Below, piece by piece: positions 16,904-17,117 of a DNA stretch of 64,000 nucleotides. The stretch lies in assembly GCF_000027125.1 (NCBI RefSeq), contig NC_017626.1. The stretch is one strand, 5' to 3'. Below the pieces are notes generated by a model. It made no database searches. It was not told where the DNA came from and was given only the letters and a program-made list of their open reading frames with translations. Source of the DNA: Escherichia coli 042. Lineage in GTDB: Bacteria; Pseudomonadota; Gammaproteobacteria; Enterobacterales; Enterobacteriaceae. The position numbers and the translations under genes are program-made. Position 1 is the stretch's first letter. Each line of letters begins with the position of its first letter.

Positions 16904-16999
16904 TTTTTTGGATTCCTCAGCGACAACAACTGTCGATTTTTAGTAAATATCTATCCGGTACGAAGCCCGGCCTCTTGGTATGAATGATTGGTTTGAAGC

Positions 17000-17036
17000 A
17001 AAAAATAACCGACGCTGATGAAACGTCGGTTTTTAG
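17000..17036. terminator. Bidirectional terminator-like hairpin downstream of yeeY
   Basis: A-run, stem aaccgacg (17007-17014) / cgtcggtt (17024-17031), T-run to 17035. Confidence 0.4.
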
Positions 17037-17117
17037 TCATTTTTTGACAGCGGCGCATTGTGCCTAAATGGGGGGGAAATGACAAGAGAATGAGAGGCTT
17101 GTCATAATAATTTTTCT

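Follow-up and report, generated by a model that had tools for sequence, protein, structure and literature searches.

The window analyzed here is a 64,000-nt stretch of the Escherichia coli 042 genome (NC_017626.1, assembly GCF_000027125.1), and the region of interest within it is the spacer between two genes transcribed from the minus strand. The downstream gene, plaP (15493..16851), was recognized as an ORF and from the K-12 annotation and encodes a putrescine:H+ symporter. The upstream gene, yeeY, is co-directional and encodes a LysR-type regulator; its coordinates (17118..18047) are those of the K-12 annotation, the longest ORF extending to 18068. Overlapping the plaP start codon on the same strand is yoeI (16841..16903), a 20-codon upstream ORF annotated in K-12 and matched by NF033439 with 60.8 bits (cutoff 33). 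Further genes of the window are yeeZ and yoeB-yefM on the minus strand and sbcB and hisG on the plus strand. The gap between sbcB and plaP is only about 75 bp (15418-15493), as tsuB/tsuA (yeeD/yeeE), which lie between the two genes in K-12, are absent. This direct junction, at a query coverage of at least 80%, is found in 782 of 5,426 complete E. coli genomes and is a common lineage polymorphism. On the other side of yeeY, Adams et al. (2021) mapped a strong RNA 3' end inside yeeZ (NC_000913.3 2088326, window position ~18115, minus strand), 68 nt upstream of the yeeY start; they class it as 'upstream of ORF', and a regulatory role in the 5' region of yeeY is possible.

To compare the spacer among related bacteria, 290 nt upstream of plaP were aligned for 80 plaP loci of the Enterobacteriaceae, one genome per species. 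With eight more distant loci the set comprises 88 loci from three families, Enterobacteriaceae, Erwiniaceae and Yersiniaceae. The majority layout among the 80 loci is yeeZ-yeeY-element-yoeI-plaP, the element being the one described below. A second layout, yeeZ-element-yoeI-plaP, lacks yeeY and accounts for 13 of the 80, and in a third, seen in Franconibacter and Siccibacter, a class-III aminotransferase gene lies directly upstream of the element.

The initial annotation pointed to a short ORF on the minus strand that contains a terminator-like hairpin, and both are present as described. The ORF (16951..17040) has 29 codons, running from an ATG at 17040-17038 to a TAG at 16953-16951, and its translation is MTKNRRFISVGYFLLQTNHSYQEAGLRTG; the frame extends upstream to a TTG at 17085, for a total of 44 aa. 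Its size is unremarkable: 88 ORFs that reach 20 aa lie wholly or partly in the 6 kb around it, and the non-random feature is the hairpin. This stem-loop (17007..17031, minus strand) consists of 10 bp, five of them GC pairs, and a 5-nt loop. The arms noted in the initial annotation are AACCGACG…CGTCGGTT, and the stem halves AACCGACGUU and AGCGUCGGUU flank the loop UCAUC. An A and six U's follow (AUUUUUU, 17000..17006, with the A at 17006 and the U's at 17005-17000). The folding energy is -13.8 kcal/mol (z = -3.74), and only 1 of 200 shuffled sequences was as stable. Both strands of the sequence scored as terminator-like in a consensus scan, and the minus strand has no other such site in the yeeY-yoeI spacer. 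The distance from the yeeY stop codon to the hairpin is 87 nt.

The hairpin is present in 87 of the 88 plaP loci, across all three families, and its tail, TTATTTTTT, is invariant in these 87. Outside five loci of the Klebsiella/Raoultella type, we extracted 39 distinct hairpin variants, all of which fold into a stem with a U-tract; their energies lie between -11.8 and -18.0 kcal/mol although the loops are highly divergent. Extraction with those five loci included likewise yields 39 variants. Levels 1-8 of the stem are paired in 90-100% of the variants, and hairpin length ranges from 22 to 28 nt as the loops differ. Changes within the stem include A-U to G-U, C-G to U-G or U-A and some double changes, with three pair types at level 9. 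A stable GC-rich stem-loop, an adjoining 3' U-tract and pairing that is kept while the loop drifts are the features of an intrinsic terminator. The one exception is Rahnella (L082, 2772-2880), the only locus of the 88 without the terminator hairpin, where a different hairpin is found with no U-tract. In this genome the promoter-like box and the conserved block described below keep their spacing (107 nt), and the gene upstream is divergent and encodes an AraC-type regulator. The 5' arm of the E. coli terminator also forms part of a near-identical direct repeat on the minus strand, CTAAAAACCGACGTT (17022-17036) and CTAAAAATCGACAGTT (16928-16943). The CTAAAAATCGACAGTT copy is the 5' arm of a hairpin before the yoeI Shine-Dalgarno (SD) sequence, and only Escherichia has the CTAAAAA portion of the upstream copy.

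Transcriptome assembly from a compendium of 3,376 RNA-seq datasets places yoeI-plaP and yeeY-yeeZ-yoeB-yefM in separate units and does not join yoeI with yeeY. This operon break is the pattern expected from a working terminator. No 3' end or transcription start site (TSS) at NC_000913.3 2087000-2087299 is among the entries listed in the E. coli Term-seq and dRNA-seq supplements of Adams et al. (2021), tables that are uninformative for genes as weakly expressed as these and in whose listed entries yoeI, plaP and yeeF do not appear either. The Cappable-seq supplement likewise gave no match for the locus. We infer that transcription terminates in vivo at the U-tract in E. coli. The alternative given in the initial annotation, a plain yeeY terminator, fits E. 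coli well, where the hairpin lies 87 nt past the stop codon, is the sole candidate site and coincides with the break in the RNA-seq units. It is incomplete as an account of the hairpin, which appears to have been the terminator of a different gene first (see below). In Erwinia oleae, moreover, the hairpin is kept beside an upstream gene that is divergent; ending the upstream operon therefore cannot be the sole reason for its persistence.

A scan of the region against Rfam gave a single match, to STnc240 (RF02074), a predicted enterobacterial sRNA. The match (16998..17072, minus strand) scores 68.2 bits against a gathering score of 55 and covers positions 1-77 of the 77 in the model, with the hairpin forming the 3' half. 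Twelve of 12 diverse loci tested also pass the model, and the match lies where the family is placed, between yeeY and yeeF(plaP)/yoeI and co-oriented with both. The hairpin is thus part of an existing Rfam family, for which an origin has been published: Jose et al. (2022; PMC8825220) proposed, for STnc240 of Salmonella, descent from the 3' end of gabT, a gene found in the yeeY-yoeI spacer of Cronobacter.

Our comparisons bear out this origin and carry it to Escherichia. An intact gene for a class-III aminotransferase of 431-443 aa (432-443 aa in Franconibacter and Siccibacter) ends exactly at the element in Franconibacter, Siccibacter, Buttiauxella, Mixta, Pantoea and Erwinia. In loci of the Franconibacter/Siccibacter type its product passes the GABA transaminase model TIGR00700, with 561.7 bits against a cutoff of 506.65. 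In these loci the gene ends 187 nt ahead of plaP, with its stop codon in the region equivalent to STnc240, and the hairpin follows 9-10 nt further on. Here the 5' half of the STnc240 model falls on coding sequence, and the loci score as well as E. coli on the model or better (for example 79.4 bits for L033). When the 66 nt before the hairpin in the window were aligned by position with the aminotransferase 3' end, the similarity had a z of 6.0, a value reached by none of 300 shuffles. Similarity falls stepwise among genera, from z ~18-22 in Klebsiella and Raoultella through ~11-17 in Citrobacter to 6-8 in Escherichia, and graded intermediates reach z = 15-22. An nhmmer profile of the 3' end of the aminotransferase coding sequence, built without the terminator, found no significant match at the locus in the 64-kb window, and the case for a relic therefore rests on synteny and on the intermediates. 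By positional alignment with the syntenic intact genes, the putative relic comprises the last ~20 codons and the stop codon of a gabT-type GABA-aminotransferase gene (17037..17097, minus strand). Its TGA, at 17039-17037, overlaps the ATG of the 29-codon ORF in the sequence AAA TGA, which encodes Lys-stop.

The more distant genomes confirm that the aminotransferase gene is ancestral at this position. The gene order in Buttiauxella is yeeZ-yeeY-aminotransferase-plaP-sbcB, and in Mixta, Pantoea and Erwinia a glutamine-synthetase-like gene is followed by the aminotransferase and then by plaP. Judged by these sequence comparisons, the hairpin is the terminator of the lost gabT-type gene, and this function predates its role behind yeeY. 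The glutamine-synthetase-like gene of the Erwiniaceae loci (L083, L084 and L088) matches PF00120 and is possibly a PuuA-type γ-glutamylputrescine synthetase. Such a cluster suggests ancestral linkage of putrescine uptake and catabolism, with E. coli keeping the importer alone at this locus.

Downstream of the hairpin, a variable spacer (16999-16977) leads into a 65-nt block (16912..16976, minus strand) that is almost invariant in all 88 loci and in all three families. It reads AAGAGGCCGG…CCGGAUAGAUA…CGACA…UGUCGCUGAGGAA, contains two small hairpins and ends in the yoeI SD. The last 8 codons of the 29-codon ORF and its stop codon fall within it. The first hairpin has the form CCGG-loop-CCGG, with a variable loop and stem extension (CCGGC…GCCGG in Mixta, for example), and the second, CGACA-loop-UGUCG, stands directly before the yoeI SD. 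Covariation within the Enterobacteriaceae is uninformative for the block, because the stems never vary; a compensatory version of the second hairpin occurs only in Erwiniaceae loci, where Mixta, Pantoea and Erwinia P6884 have ACACG…CGUGU at its position. The block had no Rfam match at E values up to 10, and the fold of the yoeI leader in the window shows no unusual stability (z = -1.31). Across 5,423 E. coli genomes the block occurs as a single, unannotated copy, with no paralogs. Candidate σ54, σ28, IHF, Nac and LysR-box motifs within it were judged unconvincing by eye.

The ORF that follows the block, yoeI, varies from 16 to 65 codons between genera and has ~62-65 in Mixta, Pantoea and Erwinia. 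Its product always begins MGQ, MGL or MVQ, and its stop codon lies 11 nt inside plaP in all eight distant loci. This pattern appears typical of a regulatory, translationally coupled upstream ORF and not of a conserved protein. In a study of CDI, a yoeI-plaP construct complemented better than plaP alone, which suggests that yoeI affects PlaP expression. No regulatory leader of plaP or yoeI is described in the literature searched, and the block may be a previously undescribed cis-regulatory leader of yoeI-plaP. With a plaP upstream region conserved at near 100% across three families and no described regulator, the wider locus may merit separate attention.

A second conserved feature lies upstream of the hairpin, inside the decayed gabT relic, where conservation centers on a promoter-like pattern. 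A consensus scan identified a σ70-like box, TTGTCA-17-CACAAT (17057..17085, minus strand), which is the sole promoter-like site on this strand within the 16700-17300 region scanned. Its hexamer pattern, a TTG hexamer (17085-17083) with a hexamer of the CAnAAT type (17062-17057), is found in 79 of the 80 loci, one of which has GAAAAT as the second hexamer. The spacer between the hexamers measures 18 nt in 64 loci and 17 nt in 15, and its sequence varies. All eight distant loci have the box as well, including those in which it falls within an intact aminotransferase gene. It lies 25 nt upstream of the hairpin, and the predicted start, near 17051, is 19 nt before it. The -35-like hexamer is overlapped by a perfect 8-bp inverted repeat, ATGACAAG-N12-CTTGTCAT (17079-17106, minus strand), located just past the yeeY stop codon and common to Escherichia and some Citrobacter. 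This repeat could form a hairpin in the RNA, or it could be an operator, bound for instance by the LysR regulator YeeY encoded next to it.

Conservation of the box raises the possibility that the hairpin is a terminator within the 5' leader of yoeI-plaP, with the box as the yoeI-plaP promoter. The geometry would be that of an attenuator with no leader peptide: transcripts beginning near 17051 would mostly end at 17000, giving an RNA of ~52 nt (the STnc240 species), and read-through would produce a yoeI-plaP mRNA that includes the invariant block. The attenuator geometry seen in the initial annotation is not supported for the 29-codon ORF, but the promoter-like box upstream of the hairpin leaves room for such an ORF-free version. 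As well as being the only site of its kind in the region scanned, the box combines conserved hexamers with a spacer of drifting sequence, and no conserved -10-like hexamer was seen by eye in the invariant block. STnc240 itself was first put forward by computational prediction. Rahnella lends further support: because its upstream neighbor is divergent, its plaP promoter must lie in the intervening spacer, and the box is kept there even though the hairpin is lost. It is, however, one of two forward promoter-like sites in that spacer, and the second, ~640 nt upstream of plaP, is the better match. A consensus match is in any case not proof of function, the promoter could be an activator-dependent one of poor consensus elsewhere, and no TSS at the box is among the listed E. 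coli dRNA-seq entries of Adams et al. (2021). Nor did we find a switch. The 5' arm of the hairpin is unpaired in the predicted nascent RNA, both for a start near 17051 and for read-through from yeeY, and no mutually exclusive antiterminator is apparent; with the 3' arm of the terminator blocked, the fold amounts to only -2.5 kcal/mol, against -16.3 for the full element. We therefore treat a leader terminator as a tentative possibility with an appreciable but minor chance of being correct. It would be compatible with a role at the end of the upstream operon, as one terminator could do both jobs.

In a broader version of this proposal, the putrescine importer would have a strongly conserved cis-regulatory leader, so far undescribed, with the terminator as its first element and STnc240 as the product of attenuation. 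Such a leader would consist of the σ70-like box, the promoter-proximal terminator, the 65-nt block with its two hairpins, and yoeI as an upstream ORF translationally coupled to plaP. The block and the conserved MGQ start of YoeI would together form a sensor controlling plaP, possibly one for polyamines. We consider this composite rather unlikely.

The conserved box and terminator could also delimit an independent, trans-acting sRNA, an Hfq-binding RNA of ~50-77 nt, A-rich in its 5' region and ending in a U-tail, which would regulate other mRNAs. The match to RF02074 is in its favor, and some expression data point the same way. In Salmonella LT2, Sittka et al. (2008, Table S3) recovered one read of STnc240, from the yeeF/yeeY spacer, by Hfq co-immunoprecipitation, and RNA-seq of starved Pectobacterium detected a transcript overlapping the Rfam-annotated STnc240 locus among its sRNAs. 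That single read was accompanied by 0 control reads, however, the Northern column is marked 'np' (not probed), and the candidate was assigned to class V, those previously predicted, having been computational only until then. Because the family goes back to a computational prediction and one co-immunoprecipitation read, membership in it says little on function. STnc240 is not found in the supplements of Colgan (2016) nor, for E. coli, among the TSS and 3'-end entries listed by Adams et al. (2021), and Jose et al. (2022; PMC8825220) give its function as unknown. The single-stranded part of the RNA is UGACUAAAAA in Escherichia versus UGACAUUA and AAUGAAUA in other genera, unlike a conserved seed. 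A trans-acting sRNA thus appears improbable.

These observations leave the 29-codon ORF, whose geometry had suggested an attenuator. Attenuation by a leader peptide depends on a leader ORF that is both conserved and translated, on regulatory codons, and on an antiterminator in competition with the terminator. The ORF does have a compact geometry, with the promoter-like box, its start and the terminator close together. An ATG lies between the box and the hairpin in 64 of the 80 loci, often 8-9 nt before the hairpin, and the resulting ORF reads through the entire hairpin and T-tract in 56. This frequent ATG can be accounted for by descent from the AAA TGA of gabT, with no selection for it as a start codon. 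It is missing in the 16 other loci, including those of Klebsiella, Atlantibacter, Trabulsiella and Kosakonia, which keep the hairpin and all of the surrounding elements.

Conservation of the frame across the Enterobacteriaceae had been put forward as a check, and the outcome is unfavorable to a coding function. The distance from the ATG to the TAG is divisible by three in 27 of the 80 loci, which is the chance expectation; the frame is broken by a 1-nt deletion in E. albertii and is also broken in Salmonella. Lengths range from 0 to 63 codons, 20, 29 and ~40 being the most frequent, and the peptide itself is not conserved, as Enterobacter species have an unrelated 20-aa peptide at this position (e.g. 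MNNRRYKRRRLFFFACTKRN). In the 20 loci where the ORF has 29 codons and shares this TAG, variation shows no codon periodicity, with 19, 17 and 15 variable sites at codon positions 1, 2 and 3. The hairpin arm is read in different frames in Escherichia (NRR) and Citrobacter (TDV) as a result of two compensating indels. The peptide segments that seem conserved, RVGYFF and EAGLRTG*, are translations of the 3' arm of the terminator with its U-tract and of the invariant non-coding block, respectively.

Evidence for translation is likewise unfavorable. The SD, already called weak in the initial annotation, is effectively missing: the start of the ORF pairs with the anti-SD at +1.5 kcal/mol, compared to -6.1 at the yoeI start and -8.7 at that of plaP. 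Of all ATGs on the minus strand, 98.6% pair as well or better, which places this one among the worst 1.4%. No small ORF at these coordinates is present in the Ribo-RET/Ribo-ApiDaze supplement, a list of small ORFs from ribosome profiling. By the same comparisons the length of yoeI, which served as a positive control, is unchanged in 71 of 80 loci, and its frame is open into plaP in 75 of 80; its SD is strong, and MGQFF at its start is near-invariant. The notion that translation of a leader peptide through the hairpin controls termination, lacking as it does a run of regulatory codons and an antiterminator structure as well as a conserved frame, can be set aside as very improbable. The 29-codon ORF is, by all appearances, a chance reading frame and not a gene.

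The explanation that we favor, and hold to be probably correct with good confidence, is that the ORF is accidental and that the hairpin and U-tract are an intrinsic terminator left from a lost gabT-type gene, which now insulates yoeI-plaP in E. coli. It draws on direct observation of the sequence features, of their conservation, of an absent coding signal and of the homology to the aminotransferase 3' end. The ORF would begin at an ATG that overlaps the fossil Lys-stop of the GABA-aminotransferase gene, cross the Rho-independent terminator of gabT and the variable spacer, and stop within the conserved, non-coding block that leads into yoeI-plaP. The hairpin would, in E. coli, end transcription coming from the yefM-yoeB-yeeZ-yeeY unit and so shield yoeI-plaP, and the hairpin together with ~40 nt of upstream relic would constitute the STnc240 of Rfam. 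One observation runs against a freely decaying relic, namely that an ATG in 64 of 80 loci is more than such sequence might keep.

A chance ORF can seem conserved merely by riding over conserved non-coding elements, here the relic of a stop codon, the terminator and the leader block. Recognizing this prevents a false annotation of the ORF as a small protein or leader peptide. It also puts STnc240 in perspective, as a terminator and gene relic with almost no expression support.

In several respects the element resembles canonical Rho-independent terminators at operon ends. It has a GC-rich stem, a short loop and a U-tract, it stands 87 nt past a stop codon, and because it is preceded by a 5' A-tract it also scores on the opposite strand. 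It differs from them in having outlived its original gene and in the presence of a conserved promoter-like box only 25 nt upstream. With the his, trp and leu leader attenuators it shares a short ORF that overlaps a terminator upstream of the gene that would be regulated, but in contrast to those leaders the ORF lacks an SD, regulatory codons, a conserved frame and an antiterminator helix. The locus has hisL ~2.8 kb away, and a genuine His leader is recognized by Rfam in related loci, while the ORF region matches STnc240 only. Compared to STnc240 of Salmonella, the E. coli copy is a full-length match above the gathering score, with the same strand, flanking genes and terminator hairpin; its box spacer is 1 nt shorter and its loop is different. 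Finally, our results agree with the model of Jose et al. (2022; PMC8825220) in deriving the sequence before the hairpin from the 3' end of gabT, a gene that fills the yeeY-yoeI spacer elsewhere. They extend that model to Escherichia, and to Erwiniaceae in which a glutamine-synthetase-like gene precedes the aminotransferase, and they show in addition that the promoter-like box, and not the whole of the relic, has been kept by selection.
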